DNA of 64,000 nt from Kiritimatiellia bacterium (GTDB lineage Bacteria > Verrucomicrobiota > Kiritimatiellia > RFP12 > UBA1067). Shown piece by piece: positions 7,336 to 29,741 of the stretch (the stretch's first letter is position 1; each line of letters starts with the position of its first letter). The stretch lies in contig JBJEWA010000135.1 of assembly GCA_051884805.1 (NCBI GenBank), positions 7,464 through 71,463 on the forward strand, given 5' to 3'. Below the pieces are notes generated by a model. It had not been told where the DNA came from. It made no database searches and saw only the letters and a list, made by a program, of their open reading frames with translations. Both the position numbers and the translations under genes were made by a program.

Positions 7336-8483
7336 TCGAACGTGATGTTCCGGAACGGCCGCGCGGGCGTATCCGCCCACACGCCCGGCGCACGTACGCG
7401 GCCGCGGATGTCGCGGAAACGGATGCCGTCGAACACGCTCGCCGTGGCCGTGCGGTAGTAGAACTTGAACAGCATCTCGGCATCGACCCGACAATCCGTG
7501 AAAGCGACGTCGTAAATCGACACGCCCGGCTCGGGCTTGCGCGCCCACGACCCCACGGCATTGAAGGCTACGCGTGTCGTATCGATGCGCAATCCGCGGA
7601 AAACCGCGTTGGAAACGACGCCGTTGCCCACGCCCAGGCGCACGGCGTTGCACGCGCTCGAAAGCCGGCAGTCGCTCACGCGGATGCCGGTGCAATCCTG
7701 CGGATGGCGCAACCACCGCTCGCCCGAAGCGCGCAGCGTAATCGCATCGTCCTCGGTTTCGATGTCGCACGCCGTCACCGTCACATCGCGGCAGCGGTCG
7801 ATGTCGATGCCGTCGCCGTTCCAGGTCTTGAACGGTCGGCGCACGGTGCGCACCGTGCAGTTGCTCACGGTCACGGCGGTGCAATTGAGCAGGTAGCACG
7901 TCCAGTAGGGCGAATGCTCAAGCCGCACGTCGCGCACCGTGACGTCGCGGCAATCGACGAAATAGAGCATCTGTCCCGGGCGCCACGGGATGCCCCTTTT
8001 CCAGCCGGCCCAGTTGGTGCCCGTCGCGGGATCGACGAGAAAGGCCGCCGCGCGCCCATCGATGCGCCCCGGCCCGCGCACACCGACACCGGTCGCGTCG
8101 TGCGCGACGATCAAATGTCCGCCCGACGTATTGTCGCCGCTGCGGGGACTGGCGTAATTCTGGGGGAAGGCGTCGGCGGCGCAGTAATCCACGCGCGACG
8201 TGCTCGCTTCGAGCGTCGCGTCGGCGTCGAGCGCGAGCGTGACCTGGCTCTTGAGATAGAGCGTGCCGCTCACATACGTGCCGGCGCCGAGATGCACCGT
8301 GCCGCCGCCGGCCTGCGCGGCCGCGTCGATCGCCGCCTGCAAGGCCGTCGTTTCGACGGTACGCCCGTCTCCGCGCGCGCCGAACGCGGACGCCTCGAAC
8401 GTGCGCAAGGGTTCGCCCGCCCGCAGCGCGACGGCGGCGATTACGGCACCGAAGAAAAGAGGATGGCGTCGGGACATGGGCAT
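7263..8483 (-). CDS. glycoside hydrolase family 28 (polygalacturonase-like)
   Basis: Signal peptide, then FGARGDGRTVETTALQAAIDAAAQAGGGTVHL, plus the GH28-type WNGDGIDIDRCRDV...ETEDDAITL catalytic Asp clusters. Confidence 0.85.
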   Translation of the reverse strand: MPMSRRHPLFFGAVIAAVALRAGEPLRTFEASAFGARGDGRTVETTALQAAIDAAAQAGGGTVHLGAGTYVSGTLYLKSQVTLALDADATLEASTSRVDYCAADAFPQNYASPRSGDNTSGGHLIVAHDATGVGVRGPGRIDGRAAAFLVDPATGTNWAGWKRGIPWRPGQMLYFVDCRDVTVRDVRLEHSPYWTCYLLNCTAVTVSNCTVRTVRRPFKTWNGDGIDIDRCRDVTVTACDIETEDDAITLRASGERWLRHPQDCTGIRVSDCRLSSACNAVRLGVGNGVVSNAVFRGLRIDTTRVAFNAVGSWARKPEPGVSIYDVAFTDCRVDAEMLFKFYYRTATASVFDGIRFRDIRGRVRAPGVWADTPARPFRNITFDQMDVAGPWRESPPEARQARIVSP

Positions 8484-10740: not shown

Positions 10741-10814
10741 TGGTTGACCCGCAGGGATTCGAACCCCAACAAGCAGAATCAGAATCTGCTGTGCTACCGT
10801 TACACCACGGGTCA
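10741..10814 (-). tRNA. tRNA-Gln (anticodon CTG), CCA encoded
   Basis: Hand-folded cloverleaf: acceptor TGACCCG/CGGGTCA, anticodon stem GCAGA/TCTGC with loop TTCTGAT, T-loop TTCGAAT, 3' ACCA. Confidence 0.8.
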
Positions 10815-10835
10815 ATCCCGTAATCCCTTTCAGAT

Positions 10836-10912
10836 TGGCGGGGTCGACGGGGCTCGAACCCGCAACCCCCGGATCGACAGTCCAGTGCGCTAACCAATTG
10901 CGCCACAACCCC
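10836..10912 (-). tRNA. tRNA-Asp (anticodon GTC), CCA encoded
   Basis: Hand-folded cloverleaf: acceptor GGGGTTG/CGACCCC, D-stem GCGC/GCGC, anticodon stem CTGGA/TCCGG with loop CTGTCGA, T-arm GCGGG-TTCGAGC-CCCGT, 3' GCCA. Confidence 0.88.
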
Positions 10913-11015: not shown

Positions 11016-11720
11016 TCAGGGGAGCTCCCGGATGCGGATGTTGCGCCAGCGGACGTCGCTGCCGTGCCCGCACCAGTGGATGCGCCCCGATTGGTTGTGC
11101 AGGCCCGGACGCTTGACGCCGTCCTCCCGGCCGTCCGTCGAATACTGCGAGACGTCGTCGTCCACGACGGTCGCGCCGTTCAGGACAACCGTGATCCGCG
11201 ACCCGTCCGCCGTCACTTCGACGTCGTTCCATTCGCCGGGCGGATTCAGGTAGCTCCGCCCGTTGGTGCGAAGCGCCGGTCCGACGACGCCGTAGATGGC
11301 GCCCGTGTAATGGACGTTCGTCAGCTTCTTCGCCCCGTTGTAGGCGTCGCCGTAGTCGTCCAGCAGCTGAATCTCCATGCCTTCGCGCGAACACCAACCG
11401 CCCGGCGCCGTCCGAAGCCCCAGCCCGTTGTTCGCATTCCGGGGCAGGACGACCGAGAACCGGATGACGAAGTTGGTGTAGTCGCGCACCGTCCAGAGGT
11501 TGCGCAACGCCATTGAACCTTCGCCGCTCGCCGCCATAACGGCCAGTTCGCCCTGCGCCGTCACGCAGTAGTTGTTCGTGCCGCCCTCCCAGCCCGCGAG
11601 GTCGCGTCCGTTGAAAAGCGGGACAAAGCCGTCCTCGGCATCCGTCGTCAGGCACTGGCAGCCGTTCAGCGCCGCCAGGCAGGCCGACGCCGCAATCATC
11701 ATGACCGTCATCTTGTGCAT
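11016..11720 (-). CDS. DUF1080 (3-keto-disaccharide hydrolase-like) lipoprotein
   Basis: Lipobox ...AALNGC, then FVPLFNGRDLAGWEG... and the C-terminal HWCGHGSDVRWRNIRIRELP typical of DUF1080. A GAGGAAAG SD precedes MHKM. Confidence 0.85.
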   Translation of the reverse strand: MHKMTVMMIAASACLAALNGCQCLTTDAEDGFVPLFNGRDLAGWEGGTNNYCVTAQGELAVMAASGEGSMALRNLWTVRDYTNFVIRFSVVLPRNANNGLGLRTAPGGWCSREGMEIQLLDDYGDAYNGAKKLTNVHYTGAIYGVVGPALRTNGRSYLNPPGEWNDVEVTADGSRITVVLNGATVVDDDVSQYSTDGREDGVKRPGLHNQSGRIHWCGHGSDVRWRNIRIRELP

Positions 11721-18593: not shown

Positions 18594-18644
18594 CAAAAGA
18601 CAGCAGCCCTGCTCGCGGGCGTGACGGTCTTTTACGCGGGCTGC
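18594..18644 (-). terminator. possible terminator downstream of the Fic gene
   Basis: Minus-strand stem GCAGCCC...GGGCTGC with inner pairing, followed by TGTCTTTTGG. The hairpin is imperfect. Confidence 0.35.
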
Positions 18645-18716
18645 CGGGGCGCAGCCGGGGAATCAGCCTCCTGACTGCGGAAGTCGCGACGATACGCGAT
18701 GTCAAAGGGATGACAT

Positions 18717-19655
18717 TCACTCATTCCCGCCCAATGCCTCCGTCAAAACCGAAAGTCGCGCAGCTTCCGCCTCAACGAAGATACGAATCATCGGCACGGC
18801 ATTGGCATCCCGGTGATAGACGGTGAACGCATCATAGTAAGCGACTCGATTTTCATATTTGATGCTGATCGGAAGATATCCAGCGCGCATAAGGATGAAG
18901 TTGGCGAGAAGACGTCCCGTTCGACCGTTCCCGTCAATGAACGGATGGATTGCCTCAAAACTGATATGGAAAAGCGCAGCCGCCACGAGCGGATGAAGGT
19001 GTGTTGCGTTCAGATCGCGCACCCAGCCTTCCATTTGCGGCACAACGAGATAAGGTTGCGGCGGCGTATGCGCCGCGCCCGTAATGACCACCGGCATCCG
19101 GCGATACACCCCGCGGTCCTGCGGCTGGTCGGCCAACACGAGCGCATGCAGTTCCTTGACCAGACGCTCGCTCATCGCCTCGCCTCGACCGACCACTTCC
19201 GCCAGGAAGTTAAAGGCATCACGATGGCCAATGGCCTCCAGGTGATCCTTGAGCGGCTTCTGGCCGATGGTCACGCCCGCCAGGACGAGCGCGGTCTCAT
19301 TCAGTGTGAGCGTATTACCCTCAATGGCCGTCGAGTTATGGGTGTAGTCAACCATGAACGACTCTTGCCAGCGCTGCTTCTCACTCGGCGTGAGCGGACG
19401 CCGCCTCGACAACAACTCCTTCAGGGAATCGACCTTCAGCACCAATCCCATCAACTCCTTCGGGATTCCACCATAGCGCAACGAGCGCCCATCTACCGGG
19501 CGCGGACAATCGGAAGGAATGCGCCAATGCTTGCCTGCCAGTATTGCCCCCGCAATCTTTCCTTCCACGCACAACATCCGTACGCGGCGCGCTGAAATCT
19601 GCCATCTTTCAGCCGTTTCCCTAACAGAAACCAACTTTTCACCGATTGTTCCCAC
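18717..19655 (-). CDS. Fic-family AMPylase (class II, intramolecular inhibitory helix) with N-terminal excisionase/MerR-like HTH
   Basis: The Fic motif HPFIDGNGRTGR and the inhibitory motif STAIEGN ([ST]xxxE[GN]) lie upstream in the same chain. The N-terminus VSVRETAERWQISARRVRMLCVEGKI is an HTH. GTG start. Confidence 0.9.
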   Translation of the reverse strand: MGTIGEKLVSVRETAERWQISARRVRMLCVEGKIAGAILAGKHWRIPSDCPRPVDGRSLRYGGIPKELMGLVLKVDSLKELLSRRRPLTPSEKQRWQESFMVDYTHNSTAIEGNTLTLNETALVLAGVTIGQKPLKDHLEAIGHRDAFNFLAEVVGRGEAMSERLVKELHALVLADQPQDRGVYRRMPVVITGAAHTPPQPYLVVPQMEGWVRDLNATHLHPLVAAALFHISFEAIHPFIDGNGRTGRLLANFILMRAGYLPISIKYENRVAYYDAFTVYHRDANAVPMIRIFVEAEAARLSVLTEALGGNE

Positions 19656-19661
19656 GCGGAT

Positions 19662-19670
19662 AGTATAACA
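19662..19670 (-). promoter_or_regulatory. extended -10 box TGtTATACT, 6 nt upstream of the Fic GTG
   Basis: The minus strand reads TGTTATACT-atccgc-GTG(19655). Confidence 0.35.
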
Positions 19671-19867
19671 CAGTATCGGAAGGATAGCAACGGCAAAAAA
19701 TGAATATTCGCCTAACTATACTTCCGTTTCCAGAATGAAAGATACGGATGACGTGTGTTCAGTCCCATTCTCAACCAGACCAGACTTCGCCATGAGAAGC
19801 CAATCCTCAAATGCGGTTGTTTTGCTCGCGATCACACAACATTAGGCATGTAATTTGGATAGTCGAT

Positions 19868-19896
19868 TTGCATTGAGACGCAACACTTGCTATACT
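19868..19896 (+). promoter_or_regulatory. sigma70-like promoter TTGCAT-N17-(TGc)TATACT for the HTH/nuclease/methylase string
   Basis: Read directly. The ORF-track start at 19887 lies inside this promoter. Confidence 0.45.
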
Positions 19897-19931
19897 TCGC
19901 TTCGGAAACTAACGAAAGAACCATACAATGG

Positions 19932-20294
19932 TTGCCCGCTATAAAATTTTGGAAACTGCTGACAGACAAGGACATGACGAAAACCGGATTGCGCATGACA
20001 TCTGGCCTATCCTCTTCGACTATTGCAAGAATGGCGCGAGGTGGTTACATAAGGGCATCCGTCCTCGTGCGTCTCTGCGAAGTCCTCGGCTGTGGCATCA
20101 ACGAAATCTTCCAGACTCTCCCAGCCACCCAGTGCGCGACGCCAGACAACAGTCGTGAGAGTTGCGCCCACGTACCGAACAAGAAGCGGAAATTACGAGA
20201 CAGGTCAACGCGACAGGGAACATTATGGCACAGAAAGACCAAGTTGTTGCCGCACTGCAGAAGTGTGGTGGGTATGCCACGTTTTCCGAGCTGA
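19932..20294 (+). CDS. small XRE/Cro-type HTH protein (possible controller protein)
   Basis: IKFWKLLTDKDMTKTGLRMTSGLSSSTIARMARGGYIRASVLVRLCEVLGCGINEIFQ fits a YozG/Cro-like HTH. A TTG start is assumed. A basic ~60-aa tail overlaps the next gene by 70 nt, so the 3' end is uncertain. Confidence 0.5.
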   Translation: MPAIKFWKLLTDKDMTKTGLRMTSGLSSSTIARMARGGYIRASVLVRLCEVLGCGINEIFQTLPATQCATPDNSRESCAHVPNKKRKLRDRSTRQGTLWHRKTKLLPHCRSVVGMPRFPS

Positions 20295-20923
20295 ACCACC
20301 TTGTCGACTCCTCGTCGTGGGGTACTAAAACGGTAGCTGCGACCATCCGGCGGATCGTCCAACAAGATCCAAAGTTGTTTTATCGCATTATTCCGGGACA
20401 GTGGGGCTTGGTTTCGATGCGCAAATTCATCGAAAGCCAAGGTGCTACCGAGAGATCAGAGAGCTACACGCATGGGTATTATCAAGGACTTTTGGTTGAG
20501 CTTGGAAATGCCTGCCACTTCAAAACCTACGTTCCGCCACAAGACAAAAATCGTCCGTATGCACACAAAAGACTGTCCGACATCATTTCCCTTCCGGTGA
20601 TTTATGACTTCACTCACCAAAAAATCTTGCGCAAGGCCAAGACTGTCGATACGATTTGGTTTAACAGCCGAGAGATGCCAACCGCATTTTTTGAAGTCGA
20701 ACACACGACAGATATACAGAACTCTCTTGATAAATTCTACGAATTACAAGACTTCAATGCCAGATTCACCATCGTATCGGCAAGAAAGAATCGCGCTCGG
20801 TTTGATGACCTCCTGAGCTATTCCCGTTATGATTCCATTCGCAAGATGGTTTCGTTTTACGATTATGACAAGCTTGTCAAACTTCACGACTTGAAAATGG
20901 CCGAACTTGAAGTGGCGATGTGA
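20225..20923 (+). CDS. HARE-HTH-like N-terminal domain + restriction-endonuclease-like (D...EVE) C-terminal domain protein
   Basis: The N-terminus VVAALQKCGGYATFSELNHLV...IRRIVQQDPKLFYRIIPGQWGL resembles HARE-HTH. The C-terminus HGYYQGLLVELG...TVDTIWF...AFFEVEHTTDIQNSLDKF resembles a nuclease core. Call rests on pattern recall only. Confidence 0.55.
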   Translation: MAQKDQVVAALQKCGGYATFSELNHLVDSSSWGTKTVAATIRRIVQQDPKLFYRIIPGQWGLVSMRKFIESQGATERSESYTHGYYQGLLVELGNACHFKTYVPPQDKNRPYAHKRLSDIISLPVIYDFTHQKILRKAKTVDTIWFNSREMPTAFFEVEHTTDIQNSLDKFYELQDFNARFTIVSARKNRARFDDLLSYSRYDSIRKMVSFYDYDKLVKLHDLKMAELEVAM

Positions 20924-20941
20924 GATCTGATCAATGATAAA

Positions 20942-22087
20942 ATGGAGCAACCGATGTATTCTGATTCGTCAACAACAGCTTTCCATAACAGCAGTGATAT
21001 GCGGAGGCGCGATTTCTGCAAGGGCGTGGCGGCCACTGCCGTCTCACCAATACTACCACTACAAAGTGTTGGAGAGGAATCAGTACCGATTAGTACAGTT
21101 GGGCGCAACCGGGCAAAAACTGCCGTAGCAGATATTGACCACTTTGAGAAAGGTGATGTTCATTTATATTGCGGCAACAGCTTATCATTTTACGAAAAAT
21201 GGGCGGCTCCAACGGTAATCGTCTCCGATGGAGCATATGGGATTTTGGGATTCGAAGGTGACACATTCGATCACACCGGAGTTCCCGAATGGTATCGTGC
21301 ACACATTGAACAGTGGTCAAAGTTTGCACGGCCAAATACGACGCTTTGGTTTTGGAACTCCGAAATTGGTTGGGCGGCCGCGCATCCAGTTTTAGAAGCA
21401 AACGGATGGCGCTATCAAAACTGCAACATCTGGGATAAGGGATTAGCCCACATTGCCGGCAATGTCAATACCACTAAAATTAGACGTTTCCCGGTTGTCT
21501 CAGAGGTTTGCGTTCAATACGTACGAGAAAATAGAATCAATGGCGACCCGCTGAAGGTTTGGCTTAAAAAAGAATGGCAAAGAACGGGGTTGCCATTACG
21601 ATGCGCAAATGAAGCATGTGGCGTCAAGGACGCGGCAGTACGCAAATATCTTGACCAAGGGCATTTGTGGTATTTTCCACCAGCAGACATGTTTGAACGC
21701 TTGTCTTCCTTTGCCAATGAACGCGGCGAAAAATCCGGCAGACCTTATTTCTCATTAGATGGTAAACGACCCTTGACCGGTGATCAATGGTCTTTGATGC
21801 GCGCAAAATTTCATTGTCCGCATGGTTTTACCAATGTATGGAACCGTCCGCCAATCAGCGGCAAGGAACGCATAAAAAATGAAAACAACAAGGCACTTCA
21901 TCTAAATCAAAAGCCTCTCGACCTGATGGAAATGATTATCAAGGCTTCATCAGACGAGGGCGACGTGGTGTGGGAGCCGTTTGGTGGTTTGTTCTCAGCT
22001 TCACGGGCCGCAATTAACTTGAAGCGGAAAGCGTACGGCGGAGAGATAAACCCCTATTATTTTAATGCTGCCATATCCCGTTTTTGA
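20942..22087 (+). CDS. beta-class N6A/N4C DNA methyltransferase (PF01555-like) with an atypical motif IV
   Basis: The C-terminal HLNQKPLDLMEMIIKASSDEGDVVWEPFGGLFSASRAA is the AdoMet motif I region. Motif IV reads VIVSDGAYG in place of DPPY/SPPY. The true start may be downstream of 20942. Confidence 0.8.
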   Translation: MEQPMYSDSSTTAFHNSSDMRRRDFCKGVAATAVSPILPLQSVGEESVPISTVGRNRAKTAVADIDHFEKGDVHLYCGNSLSFYEKWAAPTVIVSDGAYGILGFEGDTFDHTGVPEWYRAHIEQWSKFARPNTTLWFWNSEIGWAAAHPVLEANGWRYQNCNIWDKGLAHIAGNVNTTKIRRFPVVSEVCVQYVRENRINGDPLKVWLKKEWQRTGLPLRCANEACGVKDAAVRKYLDQGHLWYFPPADMFERLSSFANERGEKSGRPYFSLDGKRPLTGDQWSLMRAKFHCPHGFTNVWNRPPISGKERIKNENNKALHLNQKPLDLMEMIIKASSDEGDVVWEPFGGLFSASRAAINLKRKAYGGEINPYYFNAAISRF

Positions 22088-22322
22088 TGTCTCAATCATC
22101 GTCAACACCGTACGGAGACATGAATGACCTAATCTAATTCCATTACCGCAGATCAACTGATCTGAACGCAAATCACTCTTGAAAACTACGACAAAAAAGA
22201 GCTACATGGGATTTGCAAGGCAATCCTCTTTGGATACGCCTTGTCATGTGTTTGTAGCGGCTGTCGTAGGCCTTCAAGGCATGTGGCAAGGCGTATCCTT
22301 TCCAATCACGAAGGGATACATT

Positions 22323-23201
22323 ATGGGTACACGTGAAATTCTTGAGTCTGCCAAAGAACACCTTTACGCTCTTAGGGGAGAGGTCTTTGATGTTTTGACT
22401 ATCACCCAGCCGACTTCCGTCGATGAAATTAGAAACCTCGCCAAGATCGTTTCAAAACTATCCCCGCTCATAGGCAACCTCATCGAGTTCAAAATAACCG
22501 AATTTTTAAATTCGAAGTTGAATAGTGACGACGGGAAATGGAAGCGACAAGACCCCGGGTTTCCCGATGTGATTTTTGACGGAAATCTCACCCCTGCTCC
22601 GGGTTTTGAAATAAAAGCTTGGTTCCCGTTTGCAACAGAAATCACCGGGCGATTCAAAGATTCAGAGGAGAGATTCAAAAATGACGAAGTTGATCTCGTA
22701 ATTCTGGCTTGGTTACCAGAGCATATCTTCTGGGGTAAACCTCGTATTATCGACGTCTGTGTCGTTTCTGGCAAATCTGTTGCCATTGCAAGAGATCTGC
22801 ATTATCACAAACCTCCTCACTATTTGGTTATTGAGCCAGAAAACACCTCGGATAGGACAGCAAACCTACAGCAGACAAACACAAACGGCTATGTGATACA
22901 AGACTCATCCGAGGCGGGATTAAAAGCGGCGAAGGCGATTGTTAAGTCATGGGGAAAGAATGGGGCCTGTTATAGCACATCGAAGCTGTACCAAGATAGG
23001 CTAAAAGGTCTAATGGGCAAGGTAGAATACCGTCTTGATACGAACTACGCAAAAATTGATCGTATTGAACATAAAGGCATAGAAGAATTCAAGCGCACGG
23101 TACTTGGGCGCGAGCTTGGCGGCGAAACTATCAAGTCATGGGGTTCCATAATCACCGATCTCCCACCCGACGTAGCAAAATCACTTTTGAATATTCAGTA
23201 A
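22323..23201 (+). CDS. PD-(D/E)xK nuclease, candidate type II restriction endonuclease
   Basis: GFPDVIFDGNLTPAPGFEIKAW gives PD...(13)...EIK. Start set at MGTREIL with a GAAGGGA SD. It lies immediately downstream of the methyltransferase. Confidence 0.6.
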   Translation: MGTREILESAKEHLYALRGEVFDVLTITQPTSVDEIRNLAKIVSKLSPLIGNLIEFKITEFLNSKLNSDDGKWKRQDPGFPDVIFDGNLTPAPGFEIKAWFPFATEITGRFKDSEERFKNDEVDLVILAWLPEHIFWGKPRIIDVCVVSGKSVAIARDLHYHKPPHYLVIEPENTSDRTANLQQTNTNGYVIQDSSEAGLKAAKAIVKSWGKNGACYSTSKLYQDRLKGLMGKVEYRLDTNYAKIDRIEHKGIEEFKRTVLGRELGGETIKSWGSIITDLPPDVAKSLLNIQ

Positions 23202-23402
23202 CTTGCTATGAGCGTCGAATCGTAAGTTGTCTTGGATTCAAGGAAAATTACCGGCGAAACGACACATTATGGAGCTTCATTCCCAGATATTGCACCTTAA
23301 AGCCGATAATGCCTCCAACAGACACAACACTTTATTGACGATTTCATATCGAGTGGGCTGCATGAGACGCTAATGCGGCGATAAACCGCCGACTCCTTTC
23401 TT

Positions 23403-24344
23403 ATGCTCATGCTCAAAGGCTGGATAGCCGCCGCTTTTACGCTCATTGTTTGGGGCGTCACATTCGTCAACACGCGCATGCTGCTGAGCGAGTTTTCCGC
23501 GCTCGAAATCCAGCTGCTGCGTTTTGCGCTGGCGTGGGGGACGTTGGCGCTCATCGGTTGGACGCGACGCAAGCGCTGCGGCTGGCAAGGACGCCGCGAA
23601 GCGCTGTTCGCCGCGATGGGACTGACCGGGGTTTTCGTCTATCAGTTTCTGGAGAACTGCGCCATCTACTACACCAACGCCAGCAATGTCGCCATTCTCG
23701 TTTCCTTCGGGCCGATCGTGACCGCGCTCATGGCGCGGCTCGCCCTCAATGACCGTTCACTGTCCCTTCGTCTTGTCCTCGGCTCACTCGTTTCAATCGC
23801 TGGCGTGGCACTCGTGGCGGTAAACGGCGTAGTCAACTTTCATCTGCGTCCGCTGGGGGATTTGATGGCGCTCGGCGCAATGGTCAGCTGGGGCGCGTAT
23901 TCGATTCTCATTGGCAAGGTCAACGCGCTGGACGTTCCGCCGCTCGTCGCCGCCCGTAAGTCCTTCGGATGGGCGCTGGCAATCATGCTGCCGTTGGCGA
24001 TATGGGGCGCGACCGAAAGCGGATATGTCGCTTTGGACGGCTCGTATTCGGTGACGCTGGATCTCGCCGCGAACGCGGAAAGGTTCCGTTCACCCGGAAA
24101 CGGACTAAACCTGCTCTTTCTCGGCATTCTTGCCTCGGCGGTCTGTTTCGTCCTCTGGAATATCGCCTGCAAAGCGCTCGGTGTCGTCCGCACGACCGTT
24201 TGCCTTTATCTGATTCCCGTCATTGGCGTTCTCTTCGCCTATTTCTGCTTGCACGAGCCGATTACATGGATGTCCGCCGCTGGCGGCGTCCTGATTCTCG
24301 TCGGCGTTGTCACCGCCACCATGAAGAGAGGCGTTCACAAATGA
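23403..24344 (+). CDS. DMT-superfamily (EamA) transporter
   Basis: About 10 TM segments arranged as a duplicated EamA pattern (…FLENCAIYYTNASNVAILVSFGPI… / …FVLWNIACKALGVVRTTVCLYLIPVIG…). Confidence 0.85.
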   Translation: MLMLKGWIAAAFTLIVWGVTFVNTRMLLSEFSALEIQLLRFALAWGTLALIGWTRRKRCGWQGRREALFAAMGLTGVFVYQFLENCAIYYTNASNVAILVSFGPIVTALMARLALNDRSLSLRLVLGSLVSIAGVALVAVNGVVNFHLRPLGDLMALGAMVSWGAYSILIGKVNALDVPPLVAARKSFGWALAIMLPLAIWGATESGYVALDGSYSVTLDLAANAERFRSPGNGLNLLFLGILASAVCFVLWNIACKALGVVRTTVCLYLIPVIGVLFAYFCLHEPITWMSAAGGVLILVGVVTATMKRGVHK

Positions 24345-24697
24345 GAATATCCGTTTTTCTCCTGACCATCGGATTAACCTCCCTTGTAGGCGCAGAACCG
24401 ACAGCGCCCACAATAGCCACAAACGCCATTGGAAGCGTCTGCACAAGCCGGCAATGCAATTCCGTGACCAAATCAGGGAATCGCTGTAAACGCAAGGCAG
24501 CTCCCTATCAGCTATATTGTAGACAACATGCCGCAGCCACAGCTGTCAAACCTCCCCCACCGTCATGCTGCTATCTGGACGATGCCGATATGCGATGCAA
24601 AACCAAAGCGCGTGACGGCAAGAGGTATTGCACCCAGCATCTGACCCCAGCCACCATGATAGAACCGCCGCCCACCGCCAAACCGCCGGCAAAATGA
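24341..24697 (+). CDS. 118-aa secreted Cys/His-rich protein with a duplicated C..RCK..YCxQH motif
   Basis: ATGA overlap with the EamA stop. Signal peptide MRISVFLLTIGLTSLVGA. Repeats are CTSRQCNSVTKSGNRCKRKAAPYQLYCRQH and CCYLDDADMRCKTKARDGKRYCTQH, followed by Pro-rich linkers. Confidence 0.55.
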   Translation: MRISVFLLTIGLTSLVGAEPTAPTIATNAIGSVCTSRQCNSVTKSGNRCKRKAAPYQLYCRQHAAATAVKPPPPSCCYLDDADMRCKTKARDGKRYCTQHLTPATMIEPPPTAKPPAK

Positions 24698-24737: not shown

Positions 24738-24806
24738 TTCAGCGGGCAAGCGTGCATCAGGGGGAGTTCCCGGAGGCGGAAGTTGCACCAGCGGACGTCG
24801 CTGCCG
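24738..24806 (-). pseudogene. relic of the 3' end (+3' UTR) of a DUF1080 paralog
   Basis: About 70 nt align by eye at roughly 85% with 10996-11068 (…GSDVRW(C/R)N(F/I)R(L/I)RELP + ~20 nt past the stop). One extra G puts the TGA out of frame. The relic abuts the fucokinase stop codon. Confidence 0.55.
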
Positions 24807-28694: not shown

Positions 28695-29741
28695 TCACTC
28701 AAGGGCTCGCGATGTGGCGAGCGCTATGACGCGGCCTTGATTGCCGACCGCACAGTAGAAATGATAAACGACGCCCTGATGCTTGATTACCCACGGCTTG
28801 TGGGCGTGACTGCTGTCGAAATCCGCCCCCGGCGCAACGAGCGGATCTCCCGTCCATTTCGTCCAATGGACGAGGTCCTTCGAGGCGGCGAAGGTCTCAT
28901 AAGCCGGCGTGTCCTTTTTCGGATAAAAGGCCGAGAAATAAAACATGACGTAGAGATCGCCGATCTTCGTCAGCATCGGGTCGCCGGCGAGTCCGATGCC
29001 GCGCTCGGACGGAATCGGTTCGCCATTGTCAAGCACCGCACTGTCCCCATACCGACGCCATTTCTTCATATCGTCGGAAACGGCCATGCCGATCGCCTCC
29101 CCGCGATCCGACTTTCGCTTCGCATTATAGTACATGACGAACTCCGAGCCGAGGGTTCGTTGCCGATCGCGGATGACGAAACTGCGAAACAGCTCGTAGT
29201 CTTCAAACGTCCGCGCATCATCGTCCCCCGGCCCGAGCACAGGATCGGGCAGTGCCCGCGTCCACGGCGCGGCCGCCGCATTGTCGCGCGTCGTGGCGAC
29301 GCCAATCGAGAGCGGCGCCGTCTCATACCCGGTCTTGGCGCCACCGATATAGGTCATCCAGTAGCGGCAATGATAGCGCTCCATCCGGTTCTCGCCGCCC
29401 CACACCGTCGAAAACAGAGCAGGCCCTCCGTCCGCCTGCGCCGAGTCCCAGGCCCCCGCAGGCGCACGCGACAGCACGACGCCGGTATCCGACCAGTGCA
29501 GAAGATCTTCCGAAGCCGCCAGATGCGTTTCGTACCCCGTCCCGTCGTACACGATATACATCATCCGCCAACCGTCGTCAACCTTGTAGACACACGGATT
29601 GTCGATCATCTGGCCTGCTTTCGGACGCATCACCACACCGTATTTGCAAGGCGTCTTGACCTCCTGATAAACGGAATCCATCTCCTCCTGGGTTACGGCA
29701 GCACTCAGCACCGTCGCAAAAAGCCATGTCAAAGCGTACAT
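28695..29741 (-). CDS. secreted five-bladed beta-propeller glycosidase-like protein (GH43/GH130/GH117-type fold)
   Basis: Signal peptide. Repeated W/Y-rich blade pattern (…DNPCVYKVDDGWRMMYIVYDG…, …YWMTYIGG…, …FVMYYNAK…, …LYVMFYFS…, …VVYHFYCAV…). The exact family is not resolved. Confidence 0.65.
   Translation of the reverse strand: MYALTWLFATVLSAAVTQEEMDSVYQEVKTPCKYGVVMRPKAGQMIDNPCVYKVDDGWRMMYIVYDGTGYETHLAASEDLLHWSDTGVVLSRAPAGAWDSAQADGGPALFSTVWGGENRMERYHCRYWMTYIGGAKTGYETAPLSIGVATTRDNAAAAPWTRALPDPVLGPGDDDARTFEDYELFRSFVIRDRQRTLGSEFVMYYNAKRKSDRGEAIGMAVSDDMKKWRRYGDSAVLDNGEPIPSERGIGLAGDPMLTKIGDLYVMFYFSAFYPKKDTPAYETFAASKDLVHWTKWTGDPLVAPGADFDSSHAHKPWVIKHQGVVYHFYCAVGNQGRVIALATSRALE

Follow-up and report, generated by a model that had tools for sequence, protein, structure and literature searches.

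The DpnI and DpnII systems of Streptococcus pneumoniae, like SsuDAT1I of S. suis, are alternative restriction-modification (R-M) cassettes that occupy one chromosomal site, have a lower guanine-plus-cytosine (GC) content and lack mobility genes. Here we describe a locus with several of these traits in an uncultured Kiritimatiellia bacterium, represented by a metagenome-assembled genome of 142 contigs and 2.86 Mb (GCA_051884805.1, hereafter G000). The stretch of 64,000 nucleotides (nt) that we analysed, positions 7,464 to 71,463 of contig JBJEWA010000135.1 (C135), is called the window, and coordinates refer to it unless another contig or locus is named. Within it, an AT-rich core at 19.66-23.40 kb holds a methylase-endonuclease gene pair (MT and RE), a second nuclease gene (P3) and a small helix-turn-helix (HTH) gene. 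We consider it likely that this core is horizontally acquired R-M cargo, sitting in a recurrent slot upstream of a gene pair for an EamA-family transporter and a zinc-ribbon (Zn-ribbon) mini-protein.

The slot shares with the DpnI/DpnII locus its alternative low-GC cassettes without mobility genes; cassettes of the DpnII type (DpnM, DpnII, DpnA) are among its occupants, and a second GATC-linked nuclease may accompany them. It differs in that only the right flank is conserved and in that at least six unrelated cassette types are spread across species, rather than two within one. The MT-RE pair resembles the R-M systems of the beta-class methylases M.MboIIA, M.RsrI and CcrM in its gene pairing, its motif order (IV before I) and its S-adenosylmethionine (SAM) motif, and RE shares the D...ExK core of the EcoRV-like branch of PD-(D/E)XK enzymes (NlaIV, HincII). 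Wide horizontal spread and carriage on a small plasmid are further likenesses to type II systems, from which the pair departs in a DGAY motif IV and, in this lineage, in collinear genes with a structured hairpin between them and in a methylase start that resembles a twin-arginine (Tat) signal. P3 can be compared with R.NmeDI of Neisseria meningitidis, which is paired with C5 methylases (PMC2095814). The two have the NmeDI_C domain in common, and a weakly matched REase_II model has the length of R.NmeDI, 351. P3 is only 232 amino acids (aa) long and has a HARE-HTH winged helix instead of the N-terminal part of R.NmeDI; its family adjoins DpnM-type adenine methylases, and no cognate methylase is adjacent here.

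The AT-rich core and the EamA slot

The GC content falls from 0.65-0.73 to 0.43-0.53 at about 19.5-23.5 kb (500-nt windows), and the core as a whole has a GC of 0.45 against 0.659 for the assembly. Across the assembly, 2-kb windows have a mean GC of 0.661 with a standard deviation (sd) of 0.039, and the lowest values lie in the block C135:26501-31500 (window 19038-24037), with a minimum of 0.4555, about 5 sd under the mean. This block is also the longest among 15 assembly regions with GC below 0.52, and its tetranucleotide distance of 0.060 is the joint highest of 1684 windows (median 0.018; 99th percentile 0.045). GC at third codon positions (GC3) is 0.82-0.92 in the flanking genes, 0.65 in the Fic gene to the left of the core, 0.59 in the HTH gene, 0.54 in P3, 0.45 in MT and 0.46 in RE, and it stands at 0.73 in EamA and 0.53 in the Zn-ribbon gene. 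The initial annotation had described a switch of codon third positions to A/T between the end of Fic and EamA, strongest at about 19.9-23.3 kb and with the Fic gene intermediate, and all three points agree with our measurements: the sliding GC, GC3 and tetranucleotide checks each show a strong deviation, the core is the assembly's lowest-GC stretch, and Fic has a GC of 0.574 besides its intermediate GC3. The core ends abruptly on the right, at about 23,380-23,400, and its left edge lies at about 19,600-19,660. Fic, EamA and the Zn-ribbon gene are of intermediate composition, and as the latter two lie below the backbone GC, the accessory stretch reaches about 24.7 kb. The features of the core and its right-hand neighbours are as follows.

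19656-19931, no strand: divergent intergenic region between Fic and the plus-strand genes, GC 0.43-0.45, left edge of the strongly deviant core
20225-20923, plus strand: P3, a stand-alone restriction-endonuclease-like protein, HARE-HTH plus NmeDI_C (PF27126) PD-(D/E)XK-like nuclease
20942-22087, plus strand: MT, beta-class N6-adenine/N4-cytosine DNA methyltransferase (Pfam N6_N4_Mtase 1.9e-19; PADLOC MTase_II)
22228-22303, plus strand: E element, an extended hairpin of 76 nt in the 235-nt MT-RE spacer, 20 nt 5' of the RE start codon
22323-23201, plus strand: RE, type II restriction endonuclease with a PD-ExK core (PADLOC REase_II PDLC03583 1.6e-46)
23202-23402, no strand: right-hand end of the AT-rich cargo, where GC rises from 0.45 to 0.61 as EamA begins
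23403-24344, plus strand: EamA/DMT-family transporter (Pfam EamA 6e-34), conserved right-hand anchor of the slot
24341-24697, plus strand: secreted Cys-rich DUF5763 Zn-ribbon mini-protein (Pfam DUF5763 1.1e-6), its start overlapping the EamA stop (ATGA)

Together with the HTH gene, six plus-strand genes follow in succession (HTH, P3, MT, RE, EamA and the Zn-ribbon gene) where four had been counted at first, and family scans upheld the original calls of Fic, HTH, two nuclease-fold proteins and a DNA methyltransferase. Promoter-like hexamers occur on both strands of the divergent intergenic region (19867-19896 on the plus strand, 19690-19662 on the minus strand), with no excess over chance.

EamA orthologs of 50-70% identity were found in 22 of 81 genus genomes, and the Zn-ribbon gene stands beside EamA in 11 of the 17 relatives' loci that we read, all of which have EamA. 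The slot is the position directly upstream of EamA; R-M or other defence genes fill it in most of the loci, and these occupants are low in GC and co-oriented with EamA. Those found in relatives are listed here, where G numbers denote relatives' genomes (and L numbers, below, loci or contigs that were read).

DpnII cassette: G003, G009, G057
MamI system: G080
R.Pab1 system: G079, G011, G084
Type III system with a T5orf172/DUF5655 gene: G074
Mrr-type enzyme: G050
AAA and PD-(D/E)XK genes: G011, G012

At least five unrelated kinds of R-M system and an Mrr gene thus occupy this position in ten species, which marks it as a hotspot, or cassette slot, and the filling of one slot by different R-M cassettes in different species supports acquisition. 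Between species, only the right flank (EamA) of the slot is conserved. Compared with G003, the DpnII genes upstream of P3 are missing here, and MT-RE lies between P3 and EamA. The spacers upstream of EamA in 15 loci revealed no common motif by eye. Synteny with relatives, sought by a DNA search of 40 relatives and protein searches of 80 genus genomes, is limited to the single genes Fic, EamA and fucokinase; the nearest genomes compared share single genes only, at 60-85% aa identity.

Two side observations concern the gene pair on the right of the slot. On an unrelated metagenome contig (L074:335-3013), a DUF5763 Zn-ribbon gene comes directly after an MT-hairpin-RE cassette, with no EamA, suggesting that the Zn-ribbon gene may be tied to the cassette and not to the transporter. 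In G009 (L013:5910-7293), the EamA/Zn-ribbon pair has an AbiEii/AbiEi toxin-antitoxin pair immediately downstream, and defence genes can therefore lie on either side of the transporter and mini-protein genes.

The R-M pair, P3 and neighbouring genes

MT has the SAM-binding motif I (EPFGGLFS) near its C-terminus, as aligned to M.MboIIA and CcrM. Its motif IV reads S-D-G-A-Y and aligns to the DPPY of M.MboIIA, outside the canonical pattern (D/N/S)PP(Y/F/W); the D and Y remain, with GA standing in for PP. As DGAY is invariant in all MT homologs read, it appears to be a family-level variant and not the mark of a decayed copy. In RE, residues D82, E96 and K98 (RE numbering) are invariant across 33 sequences. 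The longest RE open reading frame (ORF), which runs from 22179 through the E hairpin, probably does not begin at the real start, and the more than 3000 RE homologs usually measure 291-305 aa; the N-terminal extensions of RE and of the MamI enzyme were set aside as merely translated hairpin. An AlphaFold2 model of RE has a predicted local distance difference test score (pLDDT) of 83.5, and the PDB folds closest to it, NlaIV, HincII and SwaI, are all weak matches. A PDB sequence search with RE returned nothing, and there is no Pfam-described relative. Because the fold matches of both RE and P3 are weak, they allow no specificity to be inferred. From their sequences, MT and RE most likely form a complete type II R-M system, in which MT would methylate its site at adenine N6 or cytosine N4 and RE would cut the same site when unmethylated.

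Homologs of MT and RE number in the thousands, at 55-70% aa identity, with more than 6,500 database matches for the MT family. The taxonomic origin by BLAST, which had been proposed as a check, is in keeping with a foreign source, as these homologs span many phyla: those of MT come from Acidobacteriota, Binatia, Deltaproteobacteria, Verrucomicrobiae, Acetobacteraceae, Fimbriimonas, Planktothrix and Phycisphaerae (at least eight phylum- or class-level groups), and one is labelled Victivallales. The pair is co-inherited, occurring together on the 7-kb plasmid pAV7K of Aeromonas veronii and in L072, L073 and L074. On pAV7K the MT and RE homologs are convergent, and a C-type HTH gene overlaps the start of the endonuclease gene. 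In L072 the pair lies between mfd and an ABC transporter, with housekeeping genes 63-82% identical to those of G000. In two loci the RE homolog is split by a frameshift into frames of 227 aa and 81 aa (L072:9368-10242, L073:4765-5639) and the Tat-like methylase is intact; this system is decaying, leaving an orphan methylase. The C-protein-controlled arrangement is not present in the window, as the sole small HTH protein is of the HTH_26 type and P3 and MT lie between its gene and RE; the position ahead of the endonuclease gene (pre-R) is held here by the E hairpin, and the Aeromonas homolog system has its C gene there.

P3 carries the NmeDI_C domain (PF27126), which precomputed annotation places in all its homologs, and a weak HARE-HTH match (0.011 here; 8e-4 in the G003 ortholog); its match to the 351-position PADLOC REase_II model is also weak (1e-5). 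Residues D142, E157, E159, H160 and K170 are invariant in 33 sequences. The AlphaFold2 model has a pLDDT of 88, a PDB fold search gave weak nuclease-fold matches only, and a PDB sequence search gave noise only. Gene neighbourhoods are more informative. The Firmicutes relatives of P3 (about 50% identity) lie between a D12 methylase, whose nearest solved relative is DpnM (E = 1e-44), and a DpnD/PcfM gene with a second methylase, with overlapping stop and start codons in the D12-P3-DpnD/PcfM arrangement. In G003, a P3 ortholog of 69% identity follows a complete DpnM-DpnII-DpnA cassette and directly precedes EamA, and in G012 P3 adjoins a D12 gene. Within the genus, full-length P3 is found with a D12 methylase in the same genome in four of five cases, against 18 of 81 genomes overall, these genomes being kin and not independent. 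In G000 itself, a DpnM-like methylase gene with a Tat-like start and an E hairpin ahead is followed by DpnII, cut by the contig end, on contig C92 (7715-9290); G000 therefore carries GATC methylation genes that are unlinked to P3. Because of the neighbourhood with DpnM-type methylases in relatives, we infer that P3 would cut unmethylated GATC or a closely related site and would probably be held harmless in trans by the C92 DpnM-like methylase.

The genes to the left are a Fic gene and a small regulator-like gene.

18717-19655, minus strand: HTH (excisionase-type)-Fic protein (Pfam Fic 2.7e-22 and HTH_17; PADLOC PDC-S04 8e-39, SoFic 7e-36)
19932-20294, plus strand: HTH_26 (Cro/C1-type) small DNA-binding protein (Pfam HTH_26 2e-11, in the frame of ORF 19887-20294)

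Fic homologs of 62-85% aa identity occur in five genomes, four of the same genus and one of another family of the order, and each has a different neighbourhood and a GC under that of its own genome. Fic is a solitary accessory gene, older and partly ameliorated relative to the core. Its N-terminal HTH (ERWQISARRVRMLCVEGKIAGA) has a counterpart of the same type fused to the N-terminus of DpnM-like methylases of Firmicutes (DKWGISQRRVAVLCSENRIANA), which adjoin P3 relatives at L020:4953-5996 and L021:5057-6004. The HTH_26 gene had been read as an ATG-started ORF from 19928; the gene in fact uses the frame of ORF 19887-20294 and probably starts at the TTG at 19932. Beyond the domain (20158-20294), the ORF consists of about 60 basic, low-complexity codons, and it has a 70-nt overlap with the P3 start. 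Its product is a candidate regulator of the cargo.

The E hairpin and signal-like methylase starts

The E element belongs to a family of hairpins of about 77 nt whose apical stem-loop, GGCU-GUCGUA-GGCC in the window, has the general form GGCY-GUNGUA-RGCC. Folding of 22205-22325 (121 nt, containing E) gave a minimum free energy of -49 kcal/mol (z = -4.9 against shuffles). Copies that are 88-92% nt identical precede the endonuclease gene of two homologous cassettes and also that of the unrelated MamI system of G080. Searches were made with two covariance models, R1 and the broader R2 (with which the window copy scores 76.8 bits), and the structure was tested on 30 copies aligned with MAFFT. Of the 23 pairs in the consensus, 19 have compensatory double changes; 94.8% of the cells are paired, column shuffles give 81.7%, none of the 500 attaining the observed value, and sliding the partners by 1 to 3 columns lowers pairing to 31-59%. 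About 18% of the paired cells are G-U, meaning that only the sense strand can fold, which suggests an RNA structure or, with lower probability, one formed by a single DNA strand.

The covariance model found E in 24 of 117 genus genomes, with one or two copies each. In G000, model R2 found four copies, every one before R-M genes; those outside the window are listed here.

G000:C92:7683-7765: before the DpnM-like methylase gene
G000:C70:45547-45633, minus strand: before a type III Mod gene
G000:C97:28670-28755: before an EcoRI-methylase-like gene (CNCDDP motif)

Further copies were read at loci L120-L148, and among the EamA-slot loci E heads nearly every cassette. A scan of 20 further genes downstream of E included six C5 methylases, one sulfatase and five without a Pfam match; the others among the 20 include genes for MjaI, an HNH/EcoRII-N enzyme, GmrSD, a MORC-like ATPase, ORF6N, a Schlafen-like helicase and an HhH-GPD glycosylase. 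E precedes genes for methylases, endonucleases, GmrSD, the MORC-like ATPase and related proteins, and almost nothing else. It is nearly restricted to the order, as only 6 of 141 genomes class-wide have it, and five of the six are G000 or members of its order. The MT-RE loci of other phyla lack it, as does the Aeromonas plasmid; Rfam 15 gave no match to it at E <= 0.1 (17-26 kb, both strands), and its loop 17-mer has no true copies in IMG/VR.

A T-run follows about one third of the E copies, and in several copies an upstream segment is able to pair with the 5' arm of E as an alternative structure. In these two traits, and in its pre-R position, E is like C-protein and attenuator devices. It differs from C-protein devices in being an RNA-type structure with a conserved apical loop, common to unrelated R-M, type IV and other defence genes, and in not being a protein operator. 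Other identities were considered and rejected. An integron attC site would not fit, as there are no RYYYAAC...GTTRRRY cores, arrays or nearby integrase, and E lies 5' and not 3' of genes. Repetitive extragenic palindromes and miniature inverted-repeat transposable elements are ruled out by the position and by the 1-4 copies per genome, a phage-borne element by the absence from IMG/VR, and a plain intrinsic terminator by the T-run being present in only about a third of copies. With moderate confidence, we regard E as an RNA leader or attenuator that limits or conditions the expression of DNA-targeting genes; in the window it would set RE expression below that of MT.

The second unusual trait of the cargo lies at the start of the methylase. 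MT begins MEQPMYSDSSTTAFHNSSDMRRRDFCKGVAATAVSPILPLQS, and its residues 20-42 (window 20999-21076) resemble a twin-arginine signal; DMRRRDFCKGVAATAVSPILPL is present, with no clear AxA site in this copy as judged by motif and hydrophobicity. Tat-like N-termini were found in 12 of the 15 closest MT homolog clusters read, where an RRxFCK-type motif and a hydrophobic stretch are kept while the sequence diverges, and an AxA-like end is frequent among them. Distant MT homologs and ten loci from other phyla start just before a conserved STVGRG, with no signal-like segment. An ORF-extension artefact was considered for MT and rejected, as there is no start codon past the motif except a GTG inside the hydrophobic stretch, and the motif is conserved. 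The host, G000, encodes TatC, and 16 of its 5459 long ORFs have the same kind of motif. These methylase starts are like Tat signals in their RRxF(C/L/I)K motif, hydrophobic stretch and often AxA-like end, and unlike the usual Tat cargo in that they sit on DNA methyltransferases, whose substrate is cytoplasmic.

Similar starts are found on other methylases of the lineage. The DpnM-like methylase of G000 (C92:7715-7960) has DRRTFCCGILASLAVPYS directly ahead of its core, and the methylase partnered with MamI in G080 has SRRSFCKNVALGVAST. Hydrophobic starts of the Sec type occur on the type III Mod protein (C70:45400-45573, minus strand) and on the C97 methylase (about 28890-28960). The latter belongs to a low-GC patch (C97:28670-30000) in which a methylase-like gene comes after E; its product has a Sec-type signal (MKRASLLAVAALLLG) and a CNCDDP motif that recalls EcoRI-type methylases. 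Other signal-like methylase starts were read at L013, L050, L055, L056, L085 and L089. Among the D12 methylases of the genus, 10 of 18 have a signal-like segment, 25-31 residues before the KPFVKWAGGK core; four of the ten segments contain RRxF and three others RK or RG. None of 16 D12 methylases outside the genus (class-wide sample) has such a segment, and signal-like starts were also absent from the C5 methylases, type I HsdM proteins, DpnA-like methylases and endonucleases examined. They span five unrelated amino-methyltransferase families (beta N6_N4, D12, gamma N6_Mtase, type III Mod and EcoRI-methylase-like). Six of the ten D12 genes with such a segment have an in-frame start codon 5-8 codons ahead of the core and could thus also yield a short cytoplasmic isoform, and some of the D12 segments may be ORF-extension artefacts; MT and three other genes have no such internal start. 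The export of a DNA methylase would be surprising, and candidate explanations for the signal-like starts are membrane targeting or partial export that limits methylase action on incoming DNA, dual isoforms, or a turnover tag. Our literature search found no report of DNA methylases with Tat signals, nor of R-M systems in Kiritimatiellia.

Layering, route of acquisition and meaning

The initial annotation had placed a single island between two minus-strand operons. The region is instead layered: an older solitary Fic gene, a recent cargo of type II R-M genes with an orphan nuclease of the GATC family, and an EamA/Zn-ribbon pair that is patchy in the genus. The earlier idea of a foreign defence island without visible mobility genes therefore stands in its substance and falls in its single-island layout, and the route by which the cargo arrived is one that we infer. 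Family scans of the island genes detected no phage, conjugation, integrase or transposase gene or fragment. Contig C135 has no Phage_integrase (tyrosine recombinase) gene, the four in the genome being on other contigs; serine recombinases were not searched separately. An insertion at a tRNA gene is not indicated, as the nearest tRNA genes are at 10,741-10,912 and there is none within 8 kb. Only chance-level short repeats bracket 18.6-23.4 kb, which accords with the original statement that integrase, transposase and flanking repeats are missing; the statement holds at the island itself and fails further out, where a direct repeat encloses 13.7 kb. The cargo, having no recombinase, most likely came in, or took the place of an earlier cassette, through recombination of a chromosomal fragment from a related organism, with the EamA/Zn-ribbon pair serving as a homologous anchor or as part of the transferred piece. 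By analogy, such an arrival would resemble the exchange of DpnI and DpnII in pneumococci.

The direct repeat involves the following feature.

24761-24806, no strand: what remains (a relic) of the 3' end of a DUF1080 gene, directly against the fucokinase stop codon; repeats 11,019-11,064 in direct orientation

The copies are 91% identical over 46 nt and 87% over 69 nt, and the relic is the sole nucleotide match in the genome, other DUF1080 paralogs giving none. Together they bracket 13.7 kb that hold a seven-gene FGE operon of native composition, Fic, the R-M cargo, EamA and the Zn-ribbon gene, with an intact DUF1080 gene inside. This raises the alternative that the whole 13.7 kb between 11,019-11,064 and 24,761-24,806 is the mobile or rearranged unit and the AT-rich core its latest layer. 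The identity of 87-91%, the direct orientation and the lack of any other match in the genome speak for such a unit, as do the placement of the left copy 107 nt from two tRNA genes and of the right copy exactly against the fucokinase stop. However, the FGE operon is fully native (GC3 0.86-0.92), an intact DUF1080 gene inside the repeats is the wrong geometry for a duplication of attachment (att) sites, there is no recombinase on the contig, and a relic from a donor fragment or an old deletion explains the repeat equally well. We therefore find this alternative unlikely, and instead of an att duplication we see in the relic either the scar of a rearrangement or a stretch of donor flank that came in with a chromosomal fragment.

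Somewhat less probable still is a decayed integrative element or prophage that has lost its integrase and att sites and left its defence cargo behind. Defence genes often ride on such elements, a Firmicute cassette of the P3 family (L021) lies beside integrase, TnpV and Mob genes, and ORF6N/Rha-like genes flank the slot in G003 and G057. Against this, the locus is devoid of phage, conjugation, integrase and transposase fragments and of att-like repeats, the slot holds only R-M-type cassettes in its ten species, and the E loop 17-mer has no true copies in IMG/VR. We give very little credence to the idea that the block is native and old, its low GC being kept by function, such as avoidance of its own site or silencer binding. 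The lineage-wide occurrence of the EamA slot and the E hairpin would suit it, and lineage-specific additions on the cargo need some residence time, but MT, RE and P3 are 55-80% identical to proteins of other phyla and yet missing from most members of the genus, close MT-RE homologs occupy other genomic places in relatives (L072, at mfd/ABC transporter), and a GC3 of 0.45 against 0.85 has no known functional explanation. A mis-assembled or mis-binned piece, for which one could cite the 142 contigs of G000 and the fact that compositional outliers are classic chimera sites, can be dismissed for practical purposes, as Logan contigs from five other sequencing runs match the window at 100% or 99.9%, with L111 (SRR30616837) spanning FGE-small ORF-Fic-P3-MT and L107 and L108 spanning RE-EamA-fucokinase; such identity across independent runs argues against an assembly chimera, and exact-protein look-ups returned only identical copies of the same structure, in five runs.

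The reading of the core as acquired R-M cargo in a recurrent slot remains the one that we favour, and several observations weigh against it or its parts. The slot lacks a left flank that is shared between species, so a simple homologous double crossover between conserved flanks is no more than a possibility. EamA is patchy and its neighbours differ from species to species, so the mobile unit may be larger and consist of cargo, EamA and the Zn-ribbon gene. Neither an empty site nor a close relative was found among the genomes compared, and the insertion is deduced from composition and distant comparisons. Motif IV of MT is non-canonical. The link of P3 to GATC comes from gene neighbourhood, and in one P3-bearing genome (G065) no D12 methylase was seen, the contig ending beside P3. 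The E copies used in the structure test were collected with a model of that same structure, and the signal peptides were judged by motif and hydrophobicity and not by a trained predictor.

An AT-rich R-M island is in itself ordinary. The E hairpin and the signal-like starts are not described in the libraries and papers that we searched, and we tentatively suggest that, across the order, imported R-M and defence genes share two lineage-specific 5' modules, namely the E RNA leader and the Tat- or Sec-like methylase starts. If this holds, E would act in cis as the dedicated regulator of a defence regulon; it is a candidate for the first dedicated RNA leader of this kind. Signal-like starts gained after transfer contradict the picture of a simple soluble cytoplasmic methylase, and localisation, control of dosage or dual isoforms may explain them; should the peptides act as targeting signals, R-M methylases would be membrane-directed or exported, an R-M organisation that has not been described. 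The MT (DGAY) and RE families are large and yet uncharacterised in Pfam and PDB, making their specificity worth determining. Finally, the EamA slot in this large uncultured gut lineage offers a natural system for the study of how R-M cassettes move without recombinases of their own.

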